Positions 1,772-15,545 of a stretch of 32,000 nt of DNA are shown here, piece by piece. The DNA comes from Deinococcus sp. LM3 (GTDB taxonomy: Bacteria > Deinococcota > Deinococci > Deinococcales > Deinococcaceae): contig NZ_MUFV01000005.1 of the NCBI RefSeq assembly GCF_002017875.1, forward strand, positions 75,437-107,436, read 5' to 3'. The translations under genes and the position numbers were made by a program. The notes beneath the pieces are model-generated. The model worked only from the letters and a program-made list of their open reading frames with translations. It was not told the origin of the DNA and searched no databases. Position 1 is the first letter of the stretch. Every line of letters begins with the position of its first letter.

Positions 1772-1975
1772 AGTGGTGACCTCCTTTGACGTTTGGGAGC
1801 CATCTGGCGCCTTGGTCTCAGTGTGTGTGCACGTTGGGTTTATGAGTTCTAAGTTAAGATTTTTATAACACCACGCCCAATTGGGAATCCCCTATTCAGG
1901 CCACCTCATCAGACAGGCGACGTCACGTGCAGGACAACCTAAAACCCTCCGCCAGCGCCGGGCAAATGCACCTCG

Positions 1976-2109
1976 TACGGATTCCGTTTGTTTCGCCAAC
2001 AATCCGGAACTTCACCGGATTGCCGGCTTCACTTCCGGAACCCGTTTTTCTCCCACTCGCTTCGCTCGGATTGGACGGGCTTTGCAGCCCATTCAATCGG
2101 AGTCGGTAT
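1976..2109 (+). repeat. 134-bp MITE-like small noncoding repeat, copy A
   Basis: About 93% identical to the reverse complement of 20079..20212. The ends tacggattccg and cggagtcggta form imperfect 11-bp terminal inverted repeats (9/11). It lies in the intergenic region downstream of the rep-like gene. Confidence 0.75.
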
Positions 2110-2163: not shown

Positions 2164-3786
2164 TCAGTCGTCCGCCACCTGCTGGGGGGTGAAGGTGTAC
2201 TTGACGTGGCTGGTGCTGAACTTCGCGATTCTCATGCTCTCGCCACTGTCGAGGTAGACGGTCGGGCCGTCGATACGCTCAATGCGGACCAGGGTGCCGC
2301 TCGCCTTGTGCCGCCAGATCTTCCCGGCCGCCAGGGCGCCCTCGGCCTCGATGGCCGCGTCGACCGGCGCGTCCGCCTGGACCGGGGCGGGGCGGGCACC
2401 TTCATTCTTCACGTCGTACGCGTGACCCAGGGCCGGCTGCGGGGTCGGGGATCTCTGGCCGGAGAGGGCCTCGGCCGTGAAGGCCTTGCCGAGCAGGCGG
2501 TCCAGGGCGTAGTACCCGGCGTTCGGCATGCCGCCGGGAATGCGGGGGGCGTCGTGCGACGCGGCCTTCGCGGCGCGGTCCAGTTCGGCGTCCGTCAGGC
2601 GGGGCAGCAGATGGCGGTGCGTGCCGGGCAGGGCCAGCTGCTCACGCAGGTGCCCGAGGCGCTTGGCGCTGCTGGCCTGCATCAGGGCCCGCAGGACCTT
2701 CAGGCCCTCCGGATCCCGGGGGGGCCGCGCCTGCAGGTCCGCGAGTGGAATGGGTTCCAGAGCCAGGATCGCCCAGCCCTGGGCACCGGGGTTTTCCACA
2801 GGGGCCGCGGCGGCCGGCGGAACATCTTCAACACCTTCGGCTGTGCCTGATTCCCCGCCTTCCATGCCAGACCCGACCAGTTGATCCAGGAGCAGGTCCT
2901 CGCCCTCTTCGGCGTCCGTGTCTTCAGGCAGGCCTTCAGTGGTTCCGCCGTCAGGCGAAAAGTCATCATCCTGCGCCCTGACTGACTCAATCCAGTCAGG
3001 AATGATGGATGATTTTTTCTCTGTCTGAATCTCTGTCGGCTTCTCGGCAGGCATCTGTGCTGGAGTCTCTGTATATGTAATTGTCAAATCGGTAATTCCG
3101 TTATTACCGTCCCGGTAATCCGGTCTTTGACCGTTTGGTAATTCCGTTATTACCCTTTTGGTAGTTTGGTTATTATCAAAAGAGTAATAACCAGCTGCTC
3201 CGACTCCAGTTTCGCCGGCAGAGTTGGCCAGTTGAGCATCAACCTCATCAGAGGCTCTGGCGGCCTCATCAACCTGCGCTTTGCGACGGTTCCCAGAGGT
3301 GGGCTTGCTGCCCTTCTTGTGGATCAGTTCGCGCCTCGCTTTTGGCCTCACTCGGCCCGCTTGGCGTTCTTGCAGCGGCATCTGAAGTATCTGCTTCCAC
3401 AATTCAGCGAATCGGTCCTCATTAATGCTGAAGTGGACGGTGGGGACCCCCGCATATTTTTTGATTTTGAGCGTCACGATACCAAGGCTCTCCAAAGTCC
3501 GACGAGCACCAACCGCCTCCTTAGCTGTCAAACGGATCTCGGACCACCAAGCCTTGTCAGATTTCGCCAGCCAGAGCCGCCCCTCGTGCGATATCGTCAA
3601 TCGGGTGTCATTGTCACCCCGATTCTTCCGGGGCAGCCGCCAATACATTATCTGGCTGAGCATCAATCCGGCTTTAAGGTCGCCCGCCATGTCGACGTAA
3701 AGCCTCTTAAAATCGATAGCATCATTCGTTGTGCGCTCCCAAGCTACGTAGGCTTGGAAGTCGGCAGTTGGTTCTATCGTGCTCAC
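2164..3786 (-). CDS. Putative plasmid replication-initiator-like protein (N-terminal winged-helix-like region, low-complexity acidic linker, C-terminal small domain)
   Basis: 540-aa ORF with a GTG start at 3786. The N-terminus (AIDFKRLYVDMAGDLKAGLMLSQIMYWRLP...GARRTLESLGIVTLKIKK) resembles wHTH replication or replisome-organizer proteins. It sits next to an AT-richer noncoding region and a par cassette, and carries embedded iteron-like repeats. The functional call is an inference. Confidence 0.45.
   Translation of the reverse strand: MSTIEPTADFQAYVAWERTTNDAIDFKRLYVDMAGDLKAGLMLSQIMYWRLPRKNRGDNDTRLTISHEGRLWLAKSDKAWWSEIRLTAKEAVGARRTLESLGIVTLKIKKYAGVPTVHFSINEDRFAELWKQILQMPLQERQAGRVRPKARRELIHKKGSKPTSGNRRKAQVDEAARASDEVDAQLANSAGETGVGAAGYYSFDNNQTTKRVITELPNGQRPDYRDGNNGITDLTITYTETPAQMPAEKPTEIQTEKKSSIIPDWIESVRAQDDDFSPDGGTTEGLPEDTDAEEGEDLLLDQLVGSGMEGGESGTAEGVEDVPPAAAAPVENPGAQGWAILALEPIPLADLQARPPRDPEGLKVLRALMQASSAKRLGHLREQLALPGTHRHLLPRLTDAELDRAAKAASHDAPRIPGGMPNAGYYALDRLLGKAFTAEALSGQRSPTPQPALGHAYDVKNEGARPAPVQADAPVDAAIEAEGALAAGKIWRHKASGTLVRIERIDGPTVYLDSGESMRIAKFSTSHVKYTFTPQQVADD
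3091..3177. repeat. Iteron-like array: four copies of an 18-bp motif (GGTAATTCCGTTATTACC and degenerate forms) at a 23-bp phase, inside the rep-like CDS
   Basis: Exact 18-mers at 3091..3108 and 3137..3154. Degenerate copies at 3114..3131 and 3160..3177 (14/18). The motif is itself palindromic (ggtaat/attacc arms). Local GC drops visibly. The two exact copies are read in different codon phases (GNNGIT versus VITELP). Confidence 0.6.
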
Positions 3787-4687
3787 AGTTTGTTCCCTGG
3801 TGTGTGGCGGGTGGCAGCATCCACTGGTTCTGTGTTGAGCAGTGCCAGCAGAGTGCGTAGCCGAAGCAGCCGCCAGCTGCTATGTGAGCGGTCATGTATG
3901 TGACGAGCCCCCACCGGACGGGGTTCTACATGGTTATTCGCGGGCTCTGCTTTTTGCGTGAAGGACCACTCCATAAGTTCAGAAAGTGCCGAAAAGCAAA
4001 TCGTCAAAAATCTCGTCTGGGTGCGGAATAACGACATACGTATATGGTTGTGTGCGATTGGGTTTCAAGACAATTCTGAGTCAAGTAGGCTATAAAATTC
4101 CGTCCCTAAATATCGGACAGCTCCTGGCTCACATTGTCTTTTCCTCCGACTCTGCCTGCAAATCCAGGAGACAGGCCGCAATGCGGCTGATCTCACTGAC
4201 GCGGCTCACATGAGATCCCGTCAACCACATGGGCCAGTCTTTTCAATCAGGCCGGTCAATAAAGAATGTGCCGACTATATCCCGAAACCGTAGATACGGA
4301 TTGCCCCTCTGCAGGGGAACGCGAGTAGCACAGACCGGTTAGCCAAGAAAAACACTGACAGATTGTGAGCATAGACTCGCGGCTCAGTGTGAATCTGGGC
4401 CATGAAGTTGACAATCTCCAAATTTGTCAACGAACTCGATGGAAGCAGCAATACTCGTCAGTACCCACGTGACGCCAAACGGACGGGTTTCCCACGCCTC
4501 ACGGGCAGCCGCCAACAAGTTGTTCAGCCGGCTGGCGTCTGATCTGCTTCTGCCGCATTCAACGGCATCTGTGTTCCCGAATATCTCTTCTTAACTTCCT
4601 CCCTTCAAGAAAAGAAAGTGCAGAGATGCCGACAGTCGAGTCAGGTAGGTTCCTGAACTCTGACATGTGGGCAGAGCAGATCAGAAA

Positions 4688-5072
4688 GGGTGCGGTTCAG
4701 GTGTGCTGATGGGTTTCCAAGTCAAGCGATTCCGGAAGAGCAGTCTCCGCGAGTCCTTCCTGCTGACTTTCGAGAAGCCGATCAGTGTCAGTCTGCGGAA
4801 CTTCTCGTAGCCACTGCATCTGTTTGCGATTGGCGTGGTCGTGGCAGCTCATCAGATACGGTCGTGACCGCGTTTGTCGGTACATGTTGCTTCACATGAG
4901 TGCCCCAAACAGCGCAATCCGAAATCGTGTTTTTTAACGAATAGGAACTTTTTTGGGCTCTTTTTCTGCAGATTCCGGTGAAAAATCGCGAAAACGCTGT
5001 TCTGGCGGGCCTTCTAGGGCCACCTGACAGGAAGGATAGGAAAGGGGCTGCGGGATCCGTGGTGTGCAGGAG
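4688..5072. repeat. Tandem direct repeat, unit 1 (385 bp)
   Basis: Starts gggtgcggttcaggtgtgctgatggg. By eye it aligns over its full length to 5073..5450 at roughly 93-95% identity. Confidence 0.85.
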
Positions 5073-5450
5073 GGGTGCGGTTCAGGTGTGCTGATGGGTT
5101 TCCAAGTCAAGCGATTCCGGAAGAGCAGTCTCCGCGGGCCCTTCCCGCTGACTTTCGGGAAGCCGGTCAGTGTCAGTCTGCGGAACTTCTCGTAGCCACT
5201 GCATCTGTTTGCGATTCGCGCGGTCGTGGCAGCTCATCAGATACGATCGTGACCGCGTTTGTCAGTACATGATGCCTCACATGAGTGCCCCAAACAGCGC
5301 AATCCGAAGTCGTGTTTTTCGACAAAGATGCACTTTTTTGGGCTCTTTTTCTGCGAATTCCGGTGAAAAATCGCGAAAACGCTGTTCTGGCGGGTCTTCT
5401 AGGGCGGCCTTACAGGAAGGCCAGGAAGGGGGCGGCGGGAACTGTGGGGG
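5073..5450. repeat. Tandem direct repeat, unit 2
   Basis: Second head-to-tail copy, with a period of exactly 385 bp (4688 to 5073). Similarity decays after about 5450. Confidence 0.85.
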
Positions 5451-7375: not shown

Positions 7376-8047
7376 ATGATGGCAGGCATGTCAGCCAGAA
7401 TGTCTCCTGTCGTGATCAGCGCCGTCATGAAGAAGGGCGGTGCCGGGAAAACCTCGACCATCGTGCCCCTGGCCAGTTTCGCTGCGCAGTCCGGGGCCCG
7501 CGTGGCCCTGATCGACATGGACAGCACGCCGAGCGCCCATCAGTGGTTCACGGCGGCTGAACTGGGCAGCGAGACGTTCGCCTGTGACCGCATCACGGCG
7601 GACGAGCTCGATCCGCTGCTGCGGGATATCCGGGAGAGCAGCGCCTTTGATTTCGTGTTCATCGACACGCCCCCCGGGGATAAGCACGGCATCGTGCAGG
7701 CCATGAGTGAGAGTGACCTGGTGCTGATGCCCCTGCACATCGGGTCAGGGGACGTACCCCAGTTGGTCGAGACGTACCACCTGATGCGCCTGCCACTGCG
7801 GGCCAATCCGAAGTTGCATCACCTGATCGTCGTGAACCACGCAGGGACGATGCCAGCGGTGACGCGCGACACGATCAGTGCCATCCAGACTGAACTGCCG
7901 GACGCACAGATCGCGGCCGCCACCATTCCGTACAGCAAGCAGTACGCCCTGGCAAAAGGCAACCGCCCGGACCGCGTGAAGTGGTGGCATTACGACAAGT
8001 TGTGGAAGGAGATTCAGACCCTGCTGCCGCAGGAGGTGCCCGCATGA
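7376..8047 (+). CDS. parA: ParA-family partition ATPase
   Basis: Deviant Walker A motif VMKKGGAGKTST, followed by ALIDMDSTP and FVFIDTPPG. Several candidate ATG starts lie between 7376 and 7403. The stop overlaps the next start (ATGA at 8044-8047). Confidence 0.85.
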   Translation: MMAGMSARMSPVVISAVMKKGGAGKTSTIVPLASFAAQSGARVALIDMDSTPSAHQWFTAAELGSETFACDRITADELDPLLRDIRESSAFDFVFIDTPPGDKHGIVQAMSESDLVLMPLHIGSGDVPQLVETYHLMRLPLRANPKLHHLIVVNHAGTMPAVTRDTISAIQTELPDAQIAAATIPYSKQYALAKGNRPDRVKWWHYDKLWKEIQTLLPQEVPA

Positions 8048-10525: not shown

Positions 10526-13418
10526 TCCTGCCGACGTTGCTCAGGTCTTCACCACCGAATCCCGTCAGAAGCACGAGCGAATCTTCACGCTAACACACAC
10601 AAGCATGAACCGAATTCTCGTCTCGCACAACCGCGTCGGTCTTTCCAATGGCCAGTTTGTCGGTGAGCATGCAGTACTCGATCTGATTCAACAGTCTGCT
10701 CCGCTGGATAGCAATCGCGTCTGGTTCATCGTGGGAGAAACAGGCAGTGGCAAGTCTGAACTCTGCCAGTGGTTGGAGTACCAGTTGCGTGAACGGCACC
10801 TACCCCTGCACATCTCCAGGCGGCAAGCAAATCTCACCGGCATTCTCGATGTGCTGCACACCCATTTACCGTCCGGCCTTCAGGGGCAGACGACTGACCT
10901 GCCGCAGGACGTGTTGACGGATCACCTTCGCCTGCACCTCATGCTACGCGCCCACCGGGAAGGCCGCGGCCTGGGGTACGTCGAGCAGTTGCTGCCCTTT
11001 CTCCCTGACCTCGCCCGGCGGCTCTATCAACCGCTGGCTTCGTTTGAATTGCCACCCCACCTGCCTCCTGCACCCGCAGATGTTCCTTTCACGGCCTGGT
11101 TGTTCAGCGCCGTTCGCGAAGTCTTGGGTCTCCAGTCACTCGAACCCACCCTGCGTGCACTGGCCGAACATACCGCCCAACTCGGGAAACGTCCGGTCCT
11201 TTTGCTGGAAGACATCACCACTCTCGGCTTCTTACGTGACGATCTCCTCGACTACATTTTTGATCTCTCCGCTCCAGGGTTCGACGCGGTCATCGGGCTG
11301 ACCAGCGGTTTTGAAGATACCCACCTTCACCGCGACGGAGACCTTTCAGAGATGGCGTATGTCCGTGACCGTCTCAGTGCCCGGTTCCAGTTATCGCACA
11401 AGAGTGGAGAAACGTTTTTCCTGAACCAACCTCAAGATCTCCATGATCTGGTCCGGCGCTACCTGGGCTGTCTGCCGGCTCAGTCGGGCGGATCTTCGCC
11501 CGCGTTTTCAGGCCTGTACCCGTTTTCACCCACCATGCTCGACCGTCTATACACACATCTGGTCGAAAGTGGTAACCCGCGTCAAACGCCACGGAATCTA
11601 CTCGACGCTGTTATCAAACCTTCCCTGTGTCTGAATGAACCACCCCACGTCACTCTGTTCCGGGCACACCCTTATTTGCGCACGCCCAGCGTTACCTTTT
11701 ACCATCAAGACATTCCACCGGAACTCCAAGGACTGCTGTACTGGCATGGTGAGGTCCGGGACGGAAGTGTTCACGTTCCGGACGATGTGGCGCAGGCATT
11801 CGGTTATGATTCTGTTCCTCCGGTTCCCTGTTTTCCCAATCCCACAGGATCAACGTGGCTCTTCGGAAAGACGGCGGATGATCCAACAGATCTGTGGAAA
11901 GAAGCCATCCGTGAACTGCAAGCCTGGCAATCTGCGGGTGCTCCCTTTCCCAAACGCCAGTATCTCAAGCGCGGGATTGAACGACTTCTCCGGGCCCTGC
12001 TGGATCCGCGCCCTATCCAGCATCCCCGTCTGAATGCGCTCAGCGCAGATCCTTTAGAGTACACGCGCGGAGGCGATCACCTCCCTATTTACTTACCCGA
12101 GAGCGGTGACGTGCGTCCTGAGCATTGGCCGAGCCTGCACTTCCCCCGCACTCTTCCGCCCCAACTGCTTGAAGAATGCCTCACCTATGCGTTCTCCGCC
12201 AATCGCCATGTAGAATGCTTTGCCGATCTGGGACATACGCGACAGGTTCTCGAAGATGTTGTCTCCGATTTCCGGAGTGACGTGCGCGATCAGATCGGAC
12301 GTCTCACCGGACAATCATGGTCGAGGATGGTCTTTGGTCTCTGGTGGCTCTGTCAACATGTCTGCCAGGGCCATCCCCTGCAGATGAACGGCGGGGATGG
12401 CAAACGCGCCCTTTTGCAGTATGATCTCGCCCCAAAAGAACTGCGAACGGCCTGGTCGGATGAGCGTCGCCACCGCGTGTTACACCGCACTCACCAGGAA
12501 CTTCGGGCGAATCGTGATCACTACCGGGGCTTATTTGTGAGCCTCTTCCATCACAGAGACGACCTGATGGACCCCGTGCTCTATGAACAGGAGTGCCGAC
12601 AGTTCGATCCCAGTCTGTTCATGGATACCCTGGCCACGCTTTCACTCTCACGCCTCTCGGCGGCGCCCTACCGGCAACGGGGCAGTAAGCTCTCGTTGAC
12701 GCAACTCCTCCAACCCGCCGTGGAATACGCCGCAGCCCTCAAGGCATACGTCCTTCAAGACGAAGACCGTCTCCAGTGGACGGCCGTGGAACGCAGCCTT
12801 GAACACGCCATTCAACAGGCAGATGAATTGGACCTAGCCTGCAGACGTATTGAGCGTCTGGCTCATCAGGCCGGATGGACCATCACTGCCCCGCCGACCA
12901 GTCACACGTGGCGGTCCGGCGAGTGGGCAGGTGTCCTGCGTCAGTCCCAGCAGGCCAGTCGCGACTTCAAGAACCATCCTCCGATTGTGCAGATCACGGT
13001 GGCGCGCACGTGGCGGGAACGCCTGGAACAAATAGAACCGATCCAGTGGATGAACGCTGTTAAGGTGTTCCGAGACAGCGCTGAACGCATTCACCAGGAG
13101 AGGCACCCCGTTGAACAACTGCCCACACGACAGACGCATCATTCGAGTGACGTTCACCTGAATGATCTGGAAGATCTCGCCAGTACGCTGGCGGCGGCCG
13201 CGGACGCCGCCGACACCTTGCCACAGCATGTTGCCGAGCAGACGGCCCGTTCGATCCGTCGCCTGCAGGCGACGCAGACTCAGAGCATTGAAGCCGTCCT
13301 GGGCCGTCATGGCATTCACGCACCCGTGCAGATGGCGCGGCAGTCACGGGAGGCCAGTCTGGTTCTTCTGAGTGACCTGCTGGAATGCATGGTGGACCTC
13401 ATGGACTGCCCACCGTGA
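10509..13418 (+). CDS. Large P-loop NTPase (about 970 aa) of unknown family
   Basis: ATG at 10509 with a GGAGG SD 5 nt upstream (the track ORF starts earlier, at 10434). Walker A is WFIVGETGSGKSELC and Walker B-like is PVLLLEDITTLG. It has a long helical C-terminal region. It overlaps the upstream gene by 17 nt. Confidence 0.7.
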   Translation: MWIPFDPADVAQVFTTESRQKHERIFTLTHTSMNRILVSHNRVGLSNGQFVGEHAVLDLIQQSAPLDSNRVWFIVGETGSGKSELCQWLEYQLRERHLPLHISRRQANLTGILDVLHTHLPSGLQGQTTDLPQDVLTDHLRLHLMLRAHREGRGLGYVEQLLPFLPDLARRLYQPLASFELPPHLPPAPADVPFTAWLFSAVREVLGLQSLEPTLRALAEHTAQLGKRPVLLLEDITTLGFLRDDLLDYIFDLSAPGFDAVIGLTSGFEDTHLHRDGDLSEMAYVRDRLSARFQLSHKSGETFFLNQPQDLHDLVRRYLGCLPAQSGGSSPAFSGLYPFSPTMLDRLYTHLVESGNPRQTPRNLLDAVIKPSLCLNEPPHVTLFRAHPYLRTPSVTFYHQDIPPELQGLLYWHGEVRDGSVHVPDDVAQAFGYDSVPPVPCFPNPTGSTWLFGKTADDPTDLWKEAIRELQAWQSAGAPFPKRQYLKRGIERLLRALLDPRPIQHPRLNALSADPLEYTRGGDHLPIYLPESGDVRPEHWPSLHFPRTLPPQLLEECLTYAFSANRHVECFADLGHTRQVLEDVVSDFRSDVRDQIGRLTGQSWSRMVFGLWWLCQHVCQGHPLQMNGGDGKRALLQYDLAPKELRTAWSDERRHRVLHRTHQELRANRDHYRGLFVSLFHHRDDLMDPVLYEQECRQFDPSLFMDTLATLSLSRLSAAPYRQRGSKLSLTQLLQPAVEYAAALKAYVLQDEDRLQWTAVERSLEHAIQQADELDLACRRIERLAHQAGWTITAPPTSHTWRSGEWAGVLRQSQQASRDFKNHPPIVQITVARTWRERLEQIEPIQWMNAVKVFRDSAERIHQERHPVEQLPTRQTHHSSDVHLNDLEDLASTLAAAADAADTLPQHVAEQTARSIRRLQATQTQSIEAVLGRHGIHAPVQMARQSREASLVLLSDLLECMVDLMDCPP

Positions 13419-13459
13419 GCAACACCAGGGATGGCTCAGTACGTCGAAGCTAACATTGC

Positions 13460-13486
13460 GAGGTTCCGGCAAAGCGCCGGAACCTC
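13460..13486. terminator. Hairpin between convergent operons (candidate terminator)
   Basis: gaggttccggc-aaagc-gccggaacctc, a perfect 11-bp stem. No clear U-tract on either side. A second, weaker GC hairpin with a gtttat tail follows at about 13514-13535. Confidence 0.35.
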
Positions 13487-13559
13487 TCCATTCCCGCTCC
13501 AACGTACTTTTTCTGCTGCGCGCTCCGCGCGGTTTATCTACAAGATAAACGCAGTGTAC

Positions 13560-15545
13560 TTAATTCAGGAGGCGTTCCATGGGCCGCTCCAGGTTGTCCC
13601 GTCGTTCCCGGGCAGCCTCATAGCGGTCTCGTTTAACGAGGAGGCTTTCATCGCCGGCAAGGATACGGGCCTGCACGTCCTGGAGTGCCCGGAGGTACAT
13701 GTTGATGTTATGAACGGCGCGGCCCATGTTCGCTTCGTTGCCACCGTTGTAGGGACGGCCACTCGGGTCGCGTAATGTTCCACCCTGTGCCCGGGTGTCC
13801 CACCCTTCGGCGCGCATGGCAGAGCACGCAGGACAGTGGCAGGGCGGTAACTCATCGCTTCCAGGAACGTTCTCAACAATCCGGTACTTTTTGAGGAGGT
13901 TGGGGTCTTCCGGGACGTACTGAAGGAAGGATCCGGCCGTGAAGGCAGACATATACATGCTGGAACCGTCAAAGGAGTCAACACCCAGATGTGTGAGCGT
14001 GGCAGCCCATTTGATACTGGAAACCCCCAGGACGTGAATATACAGATCCGGCACCTGGGCCCGGTACTGTAAGGCGTCTTCAACGCACCGGTAAACAAAG
14101 TACGGATCACGACTTGATTTCAGGGCGAGACTGCCCAGGGCGATGTGCCGGTACCCGAGATCCAGGTAATGCTCCATCATTTCGTGCCGTTGCTCGAAGG
14201 ACCCGTGGGTGACGGCCATGAGACGGTGCGCACCGGCGAGGGGCTTCATGGCTCTTGCGAACTGATAGGAGATTTCAATTTTTTCGCGCGCAACCTGCGG
14301 ACTGTCGAGACCGTCAAGGATCATCATATCCGGGGAGACGATAATGTCACGTCCTTCCCGGGCCCCTGCATCCTCAAACAGTTTCATGGTGCCCTCTGGC
14401 GTCAGGGGTCCGTTGCGTTTTTTCAGGATGGGGTATGGCTCTGCCTTGTAACTCCAGGCGCCGCAATCGTAGATATTGCCCTCATCAGTTTGTGGCAAGG
14501 GATCACTGTTAGGGTTGTGATACGCCAGAGAGGTCAAGTACCCCCTGGGATCCGTTTCAATAAAGTTCCAGATGCGTTCCATCTTGGGGGTTGGCAACGG
14601 CGCCCCTGCGTGATCCTGTGTCAGTTTGAGCTTGTCACGGTTGTTAATCACCACTGTGAATCGTGCCCGCGGAGGCACCGCGAGTTCATGCTGGGCTTTC
14701 GGGTAAAACGCTTCACTGCTCAAGTTCAGAGGGTTGAAGCCCAGTCCGGTGCGGTGAATGCTGGGACCTGTGGTGACCGGCATGGGAGGCACTGAAGCTT
14801 CTACCTCAGCCTCTGACATGAGCGTTGGTGCCGTGCGGGCCGCCTGCCAGGTTTCCAGATAGGTGATGGCGCTCTGAGGATCGGCGTGCCAATCGTGCAG
14901 CACTTCTGGATGTTCTGCGACGGCCCGCGCGAGTTGATGAAACAAGAAGCCTTTCAGGCCAACCATACCGTATCCGAAGCGACGTGCATCCTTATTGACC
15001 AGAGGGAGAACAGCCTGCTTGGCGGCATGCTCGGGAAGAATGGCGGCACTCCCGCCACTGGCCAGAAAAATGAAGCTTTGATCTGGACGACTCTGCAGTG
15101 GGAGAAGGGCCGACTTCAGATAATTCTCGCCGAGCAGGAAAATGACAATATCATAAGACTTTATTCTTGCATTCAGGGCCTCGTGGATGCCCAGCTGCTT
15201 ACTCCAGTCTAAGACTTCCCGGCTTTTTAATTCGTTGAAAGACGTTTCGTAGGGGGCAATAAATTTATACTGATCGATTAAGCCATAACCGGCTGAGATG
15301 ATTTCCAGCCGACTGACAACACCTTTGATCTTCGAGAGAATATCAAAAGCTCGGGAGACCTGTTGGTGCTGCGCACCCGTGTATAAGCGCTTGGCTGAAG
15401 TTCGGTACTCCGCCAACTCTTGCTCACGAGCCCGAAGGTGATCTCCTCCCTTGCGGAAATCCTCTATCACAAGTTGATTTGGCGGTTTGTATAGCTTTGC
15501 GCCCGTACAAGAACTGATGACTAACAAGCTTGGGTACTTGGGCAT
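13560..15545 (-). CDS. Fusion protein: N-terminal YaaA/DUF328- or DUF6884-like domain plus C-terminal TGT-fold (DpdA-like) domain, paralog 2
   Basis: 661 aa. The N-terminal pattern is VISSCTGAKL...AKRLYTGAQH...IISAGYGLIDQYKFIAPYETSF. The C-terminal motifs are IYDCGAWS, IALGSLALK, IHVLGVSS, GVDSFDGSSMY and CHCPACS...HNINMY. The ATG at 15545 lies 2 nt after the queC stop (15548). Confidence 0.7.
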   Translation of the reverse strand: MPKYPSLLVISSCTGAKLYKPPNQLVIEDFRKGGDHLRAREQELAEYRTSAKRLYTGAQHQQVSRAFDILSKIKGVVSRLEIISAGYGLIDQYKFIAPYETSFNELKSREVLDWSKQLGIHEALNARIKSYDIVIFLLGENYLKSALLPLQSRPDQSFIFLASGGSAAILPEHAAKQAVLPLVNKDARRFGYGMVGLKGFLFHQLARAVAEHPEVLHDWHADPQSAITYLETWQAARTAPTLMSEAEVEASVPPMPVTTGPSIHRTGLGFNPLNLSSEAFYPKAQHELAVPPRARFTVVINNRDKLKLTQDHAGAPLPTPKMERIWNFIETDPRGYLTSLAYHNPNSDPLPQTDEGNIYDCGAWSYKAEPYPILKKRNGPLTPEGTMKLFEDAGAREGRDIIVSPDMMILDGLDSPQVAREKIEISYQFARAMKPLAGAHRLMAVTHGSFEQRHEMMEHYLDLGYRHIALGSLALKSSRDPYFVYRCVEDALQYRAQVPDLYIHVLGVSSIKWAATLTHLGVDSFDGSSMYMSAFTAGSFLQYVPEDPNLLKKYRIVENVPGSDELPPCHCPACSAMRAEGWDTRAQGGTLRDPSGRPYNGGNEANMGRAVHNINMYLRALQDVQARILAGDESLLVKRDRYEAARERRDNLERPMERLLN

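Follow-up and report, generated by a model that had tools for sequence, protein, structure and literature searches.

Replication origins that lie within the gene for their own initiator are already known from lambda O, SPP1 gene 38 and pSK41 rep, and a locus on a secondary replicon of Deinococcus sp. LM3 is compared with these systems here. The stretch analysed, hereafter the window, comprises 32,000 nucleotides (positions 75437–107436) of contig C5, a 162-kb secondary replicon of 63.6% guanine plus cytosine (GC); the genome consists of eight contigs, with a 3.05-Mb chromosome of 69.8% GC. A replication initiator gene on the minus strand at 2164–3786 of the window carries four phased, dyad-like repeats at 3091–3177. 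These dyads are most probably iterons bound by winged-helix N-terminal domain (N-domain) dimers of the same gene's product and, together with the adjoining stretch at 2997–3090, would form a theta-type origin of the lambda O/SPP1 gene 38/pSK41 rep kind.

In lambda O, origin specificity resides in the N-terminal part of the protein and contact with the partner in the C-terminal part, and joint exchange of the N-domain and the origin is an established pattern among lambdoid O genes. The annotated lambda origin (NC_001416) holds four 18-bp iterons at nucleotides 349–433 of the O gene, spaced 20, 24 and 23 bp, each of them dyad-symmetric about an A-tract, with an A-rich tract beyond the array. The origin layout of lambda and the Stx phages, including the six-iteron 933W and P27, has been described (PMC7466680). 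Much the same anatomy is seen in the Deinococcus gene, where four 18-bp dyads occupy gene nucleotides 610–696 at a spacing of 23 bp and are followed by an A-rich stretch. The iterons lie 38–43% into the gene, as compared with 39–48% in O, the easily melted tract directly follows the array as the gene is read, and in both cases the iteron DNA encodes an inter-domain segment. However, a pairwise BLASTP comparison with lambda O gave an E value of 2, with no detectable similarity, and there was no match to Pfam PF04492 (Phage_rep_O). Moreover, at almost double the length of O, the Deinococcus protein includes an extended acidic linker and a Deinococcaceae-specific C-terminal domain (C-domain), and its setting is a plasmid maintenance block with ParA rather than a prophage. 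Its post-iteron tract is also less AT-rich and carries ACAGAGA repeats, and no P-like gene was recognised downstream.

A second point of comparison is the Rep protein of pSK41, whose winged-helix N-domain binds four boxes in the centre of rep, the segment encoded by the origin being a dispensable linker, and whose type of C-domain is conserved only within the host lineage (PMC5703833). In the pPR9 chimera, the N-domain and origin are replaced by a phage-type cassette and the C-domain remains >97% identical, an exchange that makes the replicons compatible (PMC5703833). The Deinococcus gene shows the same layout, with a central origin encoding a linker that is predicted to be disordered, a C-domain restricted to the host lineage, and modular exchange of the N-domain and origin between paralogues on contigs C5 and C7; the top fold matches in the Protein Data Bank (PDB) are to RepA N-domains (4pt7 and 5kbj), although these matches are weak and equalled by those to MarR/PadR regulators. 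It differs in belonging to another host phylum, and neither Pfam RepA_N (PF06970) nor a PDB sequence search gave a match.

In phage SPP1, the gene 38 product, G38P, binds direct repeats inside its own gene (oriL) next to an AT-rich unwinding element (PMC6316719). A PHROG match to "DnaD-like helicase loader" points to the same broad class for the Deinococcus protein, G38P being compared here by description. The phage brings a loader and a helicase of its own (gp39 and gp40), whereas none was recognised beside the Deinococcus gene. Finally, within the genus itself, the cisII and cisMP elements of D. radiodurans (chromosome II and megaplasmid, respectively) are intergenic, lie upstream of parAB, and contain 18-bp direct repeats and DnaA boxes (PMC7671480). 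They share with the present genome the occurrence of iteron arrays on secondary replicons, and the 33-bp arrays of contigs C2–C5 described below are alike in layout; in contrast, the element at 3091–3177 is intragenic, dyad-symmetric and tied to a phage-type initiator.

Phased dyads inside the initiator gene

The features of the gene, listed in the direction in which it is read, are as follows:

2164–3786, minus strand: replication initiator gene of the O-like/replisome-organiser type, 540 codons with a GTG start, identified by PHROG matches
3352–3762, minus strand: predicted N-terminal winged-helix DNA-binding domain, residues ~9–145 (AlphaFold2, Foldseek)
3168–3192: palindrome GGTTATTA-N9-TAATAACC, which overlaps iteron 4 and holds a fifth half-site, GTAAT, at 3184–3188
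3160–3177: iteron 4, matching GGTAATTCCGTTATTACC at 14 of 18 bases, each half-site at 5/6
3137–3154: iteron 3, exact dyad GGTAAT-N6-ATTACC, read as VITELP; unchanged in the homologue L033
3114–3131: iteron 2, matching GGTAATTCCGTTATTACC at 12 of 18 bases, with one half-site intact; more drifted in L033
3091–3108: iteron 1, exact dyad GGTAAT-N6-ATTACC, read as GNNGIT; unchanged in L033 and the closest site to the presumed opening region
2997–3090, minus strand: candidate DNA-unwinding region of low duplex stability, with a GC content of 0.44 and a coding strand rich in A
3066–3072, 3030–3036 and 3018–3024, minus strand: three copies of ACAGAGA, directly past the iterons on the coding strand
2452–2784, minus strand: helical C-terminal domain, residues 335–445, modelled with a predicted local distance difference test score (pLDDT) of ~90
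2197–2319, minus strand: small beta domain, residues 490–530, pLDDT ~85

The 18-mer GGTAATTCCGTTATTACC occurs as exact copies at 3091–3108 and 3137–3154, and a search of the 4.37-Mb genome that permitted up to three mismatches found no further copy. The unit is itself dyadic (GGTAAT-N6-ATTACC), and the four iterons follow one another at a start-to-start distance of exactly 23 bp. Close repetition of this kind is rare by chance: exact 18-mer pairs no more than 60 nt apart number 62 in the whole genome, as compared with ~0.003 expected in random sequence, and many of the 62 belong to iteron-type arrays on the secondary replicons. The array is more similar to itself at a 46-bp period (79%) than at a 23-bp period (62%). 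It can also be read in an alternative register, as ATTACC-(A-tract)-GGTAAT units (ATTACC-AAAAG-GGTAAT) centred on what are otherwise the "spacers", and in this form it resembles the lambda iteron TCCCTC-AAAAC-GAGGGA. A CC-AAA(G/C)-GG core between half-sites recurs in many relatives, and the array is compatible with either register, the 18-mer dyad or the A-tract-centred unit. Compensatory conservation of the palindrome at 3168–3192 was absent in the close homologue L033.

The repeats stand out in base composition as well. The GC content is 0.40–0.43 across 3001–3200, as compared with ~0.65 in the flanking DNA, and values this low occur in just 0.5% of 200-bp windows on C5. By nearest-neighbour calculation, the duplex of the iteron region falls within the least stable 0.07–0.3% of the replicon. 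The two exact copies are translated in different codon phases of the minus-strand gene, with VITELP forming residues 212–217 and GNNGIT residues 227–232. An earlier note on this DNA had described an 18-mer present exactly twice, degenerate copies at 3114 and 3160 that complete four sites 23 bp apart, a reading of the exact copies in two codon phases, and a locally AT-rich setting, and each of these observations was borne out by the sequence, the gene translation and the whole-genome search.

The initiator protein, its relatives and cassette exchange

The initiator protein as a whole has no match in Pfam (E ≤ 1), in NCBIfam or by PDB sequence search, and a Pfam search found it to be without the DnaB_2 (DnaD C-terminal) domain. 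Its N-terminal part is recognised in PHROG, where residues 24–183 match family 9773, "replication initiation O-like" (E 4.6e-11), and residues 28–183 match family 6493, "DnaD-like helicase loader" (E 1.4e-12). Word-indexed protein searches, made both with the N-domain by itself and with a profile, contributed just two new sequences (P0014 and P0160), and the alignment used to model this part was therefore deepened from viral loci. The N-domain was then modelled on its own with AlphaFold2 from 44 aligned sequences, the full-length model having a poor N-domain. The resulting model has a mean pLDDT of 79, with values >90 over most of residues 30–140 and a dip at 51–70, and consists of a helix-turn-helix with a beta-hairpin wing. 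A Foldseek search of the PDB returned mostly winged-helix DNA binders, headed by the N-domain of staphylococcal plasmid RepA (4pt7, 5kbj and 4pql), and a fold search of BFVD (viral structures) returned phage "replication protein O", RepA-family and DnaD models.

Beyond the N-domain, residues 178–334 are predicted to be disordered because their pLDDT in the full-length AlphaFold model is <50 and mostly ~30. The iterons encode residues 204–232, which is the start of this linker, straight after the DNA-binding domain. The C-terminal 211 residues are found in 24 of 111 Deinococcaceae genomes, as compared with one weak match among 189 genomes of other families in the phylum, and a fold search with the C-terminal domain recognised no function.

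The N-domain has a far wider distribution: of 1.84 billion cluster representatives, 2461 match it at E ≤ 1e-3, and in 143 of the 150 relatives listed the match begins in the first 30 residues. The domains DnaA_N and DnaB_2 are helicase- or replisome-recruiting modules, and they were found at the C-termini of four and two, respectively, of 53 N-domain relatives. A search of genome contigs for loci related to the initiator yielded one Anaerolineae locus only.

Phased repeats also recur at the same position of the gene in homologues. Of the Deinococcaceae and metagenome genes that share the C-domain, ~22 of 25 distinct ones contain three to six phased dyads with a period of 21–24 bp at gene nucleotides 450–800, beside the GC minimum of the gene. 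In viral contigs, when the window richest in phased repeats was sought across each entire ~5-kb locus, it fell inside the gene and no more than 180 nt from the end of the N-domain in 35 of 45 distinct loci; the expectation by chance is ~7.5% per locus, and the nominal binomial P is 6e-31, a value that is too extreme because loci are related to one another. Because the period in most relatives is 22–23 bp, the codon phase rotates from one repeat to the next, and since it does so the repeats are not peptide repeats.

The repeat sequences of the homologues change together with the N-terminal DNA-binding domain. Within the class to which the Deinococcus sp. LM3 gene belongs, whose N-domains are 42–93% identical, the repeats hold to a period of 23 bp and the iterons show a recognisable relationship (TAAT-N5-GAATTACC with an AAAC or AAAG spacer). 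In all, five N-domain classes that are unrelated by BLAST, each with its own iteron type, are joined to one homologous C-domain, and examples of the iteron types are TAGCACG-N5-CGTGCTA, TCCCAAAATTTTGGGA and TGGCAT-N7-ATGCCA. The four other classes comprise the following loci:

Class B: L001, L004, L024 and L027
Class C: L018, L019 and L023
Class D: L007, L010, L015 and L034
Class E: L011, L026 and L031

Each unrelated class also has its own short post-iteron repeat with a period of ~12–21 nt, for example GAAGTT..TTCAA, CACGAGAyTTC or TAACACAG..TCC, so that an array of iterons with short repeats behind it seems to be a general arrangement.

Selection on the gene was examined by comparing it with the 87%-identical homologue L033, from a contig of Deinococcus sp. 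6YEL10. Synonymous divergence (dS) and the ratio of non-synonymous to synonymous divergence (dN/dS) for three parts of the gene were as follows:

Codons 1–196, N-domain: dS 0.247, dN/dS 0.11
Codons 197–270, origin-coding: dS 0.064, dN/dS 1.04
Codons 335–539, C-terminal part: dS 0.383, dN/dS 0.20

By this measure, the folded parts of the protein are under purifying constraint at the protein level, and the origin-coding codons appear constrained at silent sites, with a peptide that is approximately neutral. The changes between the window and L033 fall in the weak iterons and the palindrome, and both perfect iterons are unchanged. The earlier note had held that the repeats are conserved as DNA rather than as protein, and the low dS of 0.064, as compared with 0.25–0.38 in the rest of the gene, a dN/dS near 1 and the rotating frames all agree with this view. 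Its broader proposal of a Rep-binding site or origin nested within a rep-like gene gains sequence-based support from the repeats in homologues, from their covariation with the N-domain and from the suppressed dS. The same note had considered that homologous rep genes might lack the repeats, which is answered by the ~22 of 25 relatives that carry them at the matching position, and had named the adjacent non-coding region as another place for the origin, where no iteron array occurs between 3787 and 5800.

A natural instance of exchange is provided by the 60.8-kb replicon C7 of the same cell, which encodes a paralogous initiator at C7 ~12460–14203 (locus L024, 634–2376). By blastn, the two genes share 91.4% DNA identity over gene nucleotides 811–1592 (window 2976–2195, minus strand) and are unrelated upstream, and the junction at window 2976 coincides with the downstream edge of the origin. 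The C7 paralogue has an unrelated N-domain, iterons of the TGGCAT-N7-ATGCCA type with 21/24-bp spacing, and post-iteron repeats of the GAAGTT type. A further example is the metagenomic locus L034, from a prophage context, whose C-terminal part is 91% identical and whose N-domain and iterons are unrelated. These patterns are best explained if a single specificity cassette, made up of the N-domain, the iterons and the opening region, is moved and recombined as a unit, and exchange of such a cassette would let two related replicons coexist in one cell.

The post-iteron stretch and a possible mechanism

Three of the five ACAGAGA copies in the 32-kb window fall within 55 nt of each other in the candidate unwinding region, and the motif proves to be widespread. 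Among 51 loci of the N-domain family, with GC contents from 27 to 71%, the heptamer has a density of 2.63/kb in the post-iteron zone, as compared with 0.041/kb elsewhere on both strands, which is a 64-fold difference. At least one copy is present in 39 of these loci and at least two in 28, the commonest distance between copies being 12 nt. The family consensus around ACAGAGA is the 12-mer ACAGAGAnTACn, which is present two to four times immediately after otherwise unrelated iterons. The Deinococcus initiator belongs by these features to the N-domain family, having phased iterons within the gene and ACAGAGAnTACn repeats after them on the coding strand. The heptamer is frame-locked as ACA GAG A.., and Thr-Glu pairs in the zone are encoded by ACAGAG in 45–76% of cases, as compared with the 6–15% predicted from codon usage, in the low-, mid- and high-GC groups alike. 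Because the observed codon choice so exceeds the prediction from codon usage, ACAGAGA is regarded as a motif kept at the DNA level, and it is probably part of the unwinding element. No relevant paper on ACAGAGA and iterons turned up in the literature library searched.

A more tentative idea, and one that may well prove wrong, is that ACAGAGAnTACn acts as a sequence-specific origin-opening element, a single-strand motif that the conserved N-domain or some universal host factor would recognise, in a role comparable to that of the DnaA-trios or the plasmid 13-mers. Within this initiator family, the 12-mer is found in backgrounds that range from phages of 27% GC to Deinococcus plasmids of 70% GC, and it is kept against codon bias. 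If the idea were correct, these origins would have a two-part code, in which variable iterons specify identity and a universal motif specifies melting, and a Deinococcus cell with two cassette-swapped paralogues would be a natural system in which to test it.

Initiation at the Deinococcus sp. LM3 locus can be pictured as follows. The dyads would be filled by dimers of the N-domain, iterons 1 and 3 acting as strong sites and iterons 2 and 4 as weak ones. The initiator bound to the iterons would then build a bent nucleoprotein complex and distort the DNA, so that the adjacent low-stability ACAGAGA stretch at 2997–3090 could open. The Deinococcaceae-specific C-domain would subsequently recruit a component of the host replisome, conceivably the helicase, its loader or a primase. 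In such a scheme, the origin DNA would double as the code for a disordered, sequence-tolerant linker between the folded parts of the protein, and transcription of the initiator gene necessarily crosses the origin, as it does in lambda.

Replicon context, competing explanations and meaning

Outside the initiator gene, the following neighbours belong to the same block:

3783–4037, minus strand: open reading frame (ORF) of 84 codons; its TGA stop and the initiator's GTG start overlap (GTGA)
7376–8047, plus strand: ParA-type partition ATPase (Pfam AAA_31, VirC1 and CbiA; PHROG 164)

The 84-codon ORF has no Pfam or PHROG match, and its GTGA overlap with the initiator suggests that the two may be translationally coupled. 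A promoter scan around the initiator gene found no sigma-70-like site, such a scan being uninformative for Deinococcus. The non-coding DNA upstream of the initiator contains, at 4682–5366, two head-to-tail copies of a 385-bp unit that are 93% identical, and this duplication was the only repeat structure found between 3787 and 5800. A ParB-type partner was not recognised next to ParA. The block of ParA, two small genes and rep is present at 90.7% DNA identity in Deinococcus sp. 6YEL10, and the DNA homology to that contig breaks at window 1956–2108, just beyond the rep stop. An island resembling the 7-deazaguanine Dpd system also lies near the initiator gene. Elsewhere in the genome, long arrays of direct repeats spaced ~31–35 bp apart were found at C2 358188–358516, C3 54205–54351 and 76784–77171, and C4 145735–145960 and 204299–204389, and by analogy these are likely to be arrays with origin (ori) and parS functions like cisII and cisMP of D. 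radiodurans.

Several observations weigh against an active intragenic origin at 2997–3177. Only two of the four iterons are good dyads, and the post-iteron stretch, at GC 0.44, is only moderately AT-rich, as compared with 0.31 in lambda. The fold matches to the RepA N-domain are weak (E 0.02–0.1, template modelling score ≤0.4), and MarR/PadR regulators score alike. The substitutions in codons 197–270 are few, with three synonymous and eleven non-synonymous. The downstream ORFs at 1124–1771 and 2–1057 have no Pfam or PHROG match, and a loader resembling lambda P was not recognised there. The cumulative GC skew of C5 and C7 gave no origin signal, C5 being mosaic and C7 showing a monotone trend. 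Moreover, a second module at C5 126876–128889 (L037, 3877–5890) contains a 497-aa gene of the Pfam RPA family ("Replication initiator protein A"). Finally, from the observed anatomy, conservation, covariation with the N-domain and DNA-level selection we infer the binding, opening, partner recruitment and firing on C5 that such an origin would involve.

The second module bears on the question of which origin the replicon uses. Its Pfam RPA gene adjoins nine copies of TGACCGAGATGTCCGAA ~33 bp apart, beside one of the least stable stretches of the replicon, and the module, at ~128.5 kb on C5, lies ~50 kb from the intragenic iterons. Because C5 also carries this RepA-type module, the intragenic origin may be auxiliary, silent or a captured phage module, and it need not be the sole or main origin of the replicon. 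On a rival view, the dyads are genuine initiator sites within an inactive or regulatory relic, a phage cassette captured by a plasmid that replicates from the RepA-type origin, where they could possibly serve in autoregulation, as a transcription roadblock, in handcuffing or as incompatibility sites. Such a history would fit both the RPA initiator with its nine 33-bp iterons and the prophage-like surroundings of close relatives, which include AntA/KilAC antirepressors and an integrase. Decay is what one would expect of a relic, however, whereas the iterons, the easily melted stretch and the ACAGAGA repeats are all intact, purifying selection acts on both folded domains (dN/dS 0.11 and 0.20) and dS is suppressed in the origin. 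The rep/two-small-genes/ParA block has also been kept as a unit in another strain at 90.7% identity, and on balance a relic appears rather unlikely.

It is also conceivable that the repeats are a centromere (parS-like) for the nearby ParA, which is encoded 4 kb away, and one repeat array has been reported to combine ori and parS functions on the secondary replicons of D. radiodurans (PMC7671480). A centromere role is nevertheless very unlikely, because the repeats follow the N-domain of their host gene across phage loci and no partition gene is recorded beside the prophage-context homologues, the viral loci not having been screened for partition genes. Furthermore, the position of the repeats straight after the DNA-binding domain is fixed throughout the family, and the ParA of the window lacks a recognised ParB-type partner. 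Finally, it is scarcely credible that the repeats are a by-product of a low-complexity peptide or of a recent 46-bp slippage duplication and functionless as DNA, since this would suit the excess of 46-bp over 23-bp similarity (79% and 62%) and the disorder of the encoded segment but not the exact copies in different frames, the rotation of frames in most relatives, the suppressed dS with a dN/dS of ~1, or the dyad arrays that unrelated genes keep at the matching place.

An initiator-bound, intragenic origin accordingly remains the preferred reading of 2997–3177. The layout is a textbook one and should be only a modest surprise to the specialist, as the arrangement is already known; the initiator family to which it belongs is nonetheless large and uncharacterised. 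For the Deinococcus plasmid block, the analysis provides a concrete, testable origin together with its initiator, the product of a gene that is unrecognised by Pfam and NCBIfam and labelled "hypothetical". A possible use would be as a compact replicon for Deinococcus vectors, with the two paralogues serving as a compatibility pair. The parts most worth experiment are the conserved 12-mer and the natural cassette-swapped pair within one cell. More broadly, the logic of lambda and pSK41, in which the origin lies in the linker of the initiator and the binding domain and origin are swapped as a cassette onto a host-specific C-domain, would extend to a new phylum and to a third initiator family, one that is very large and uncharacterised.

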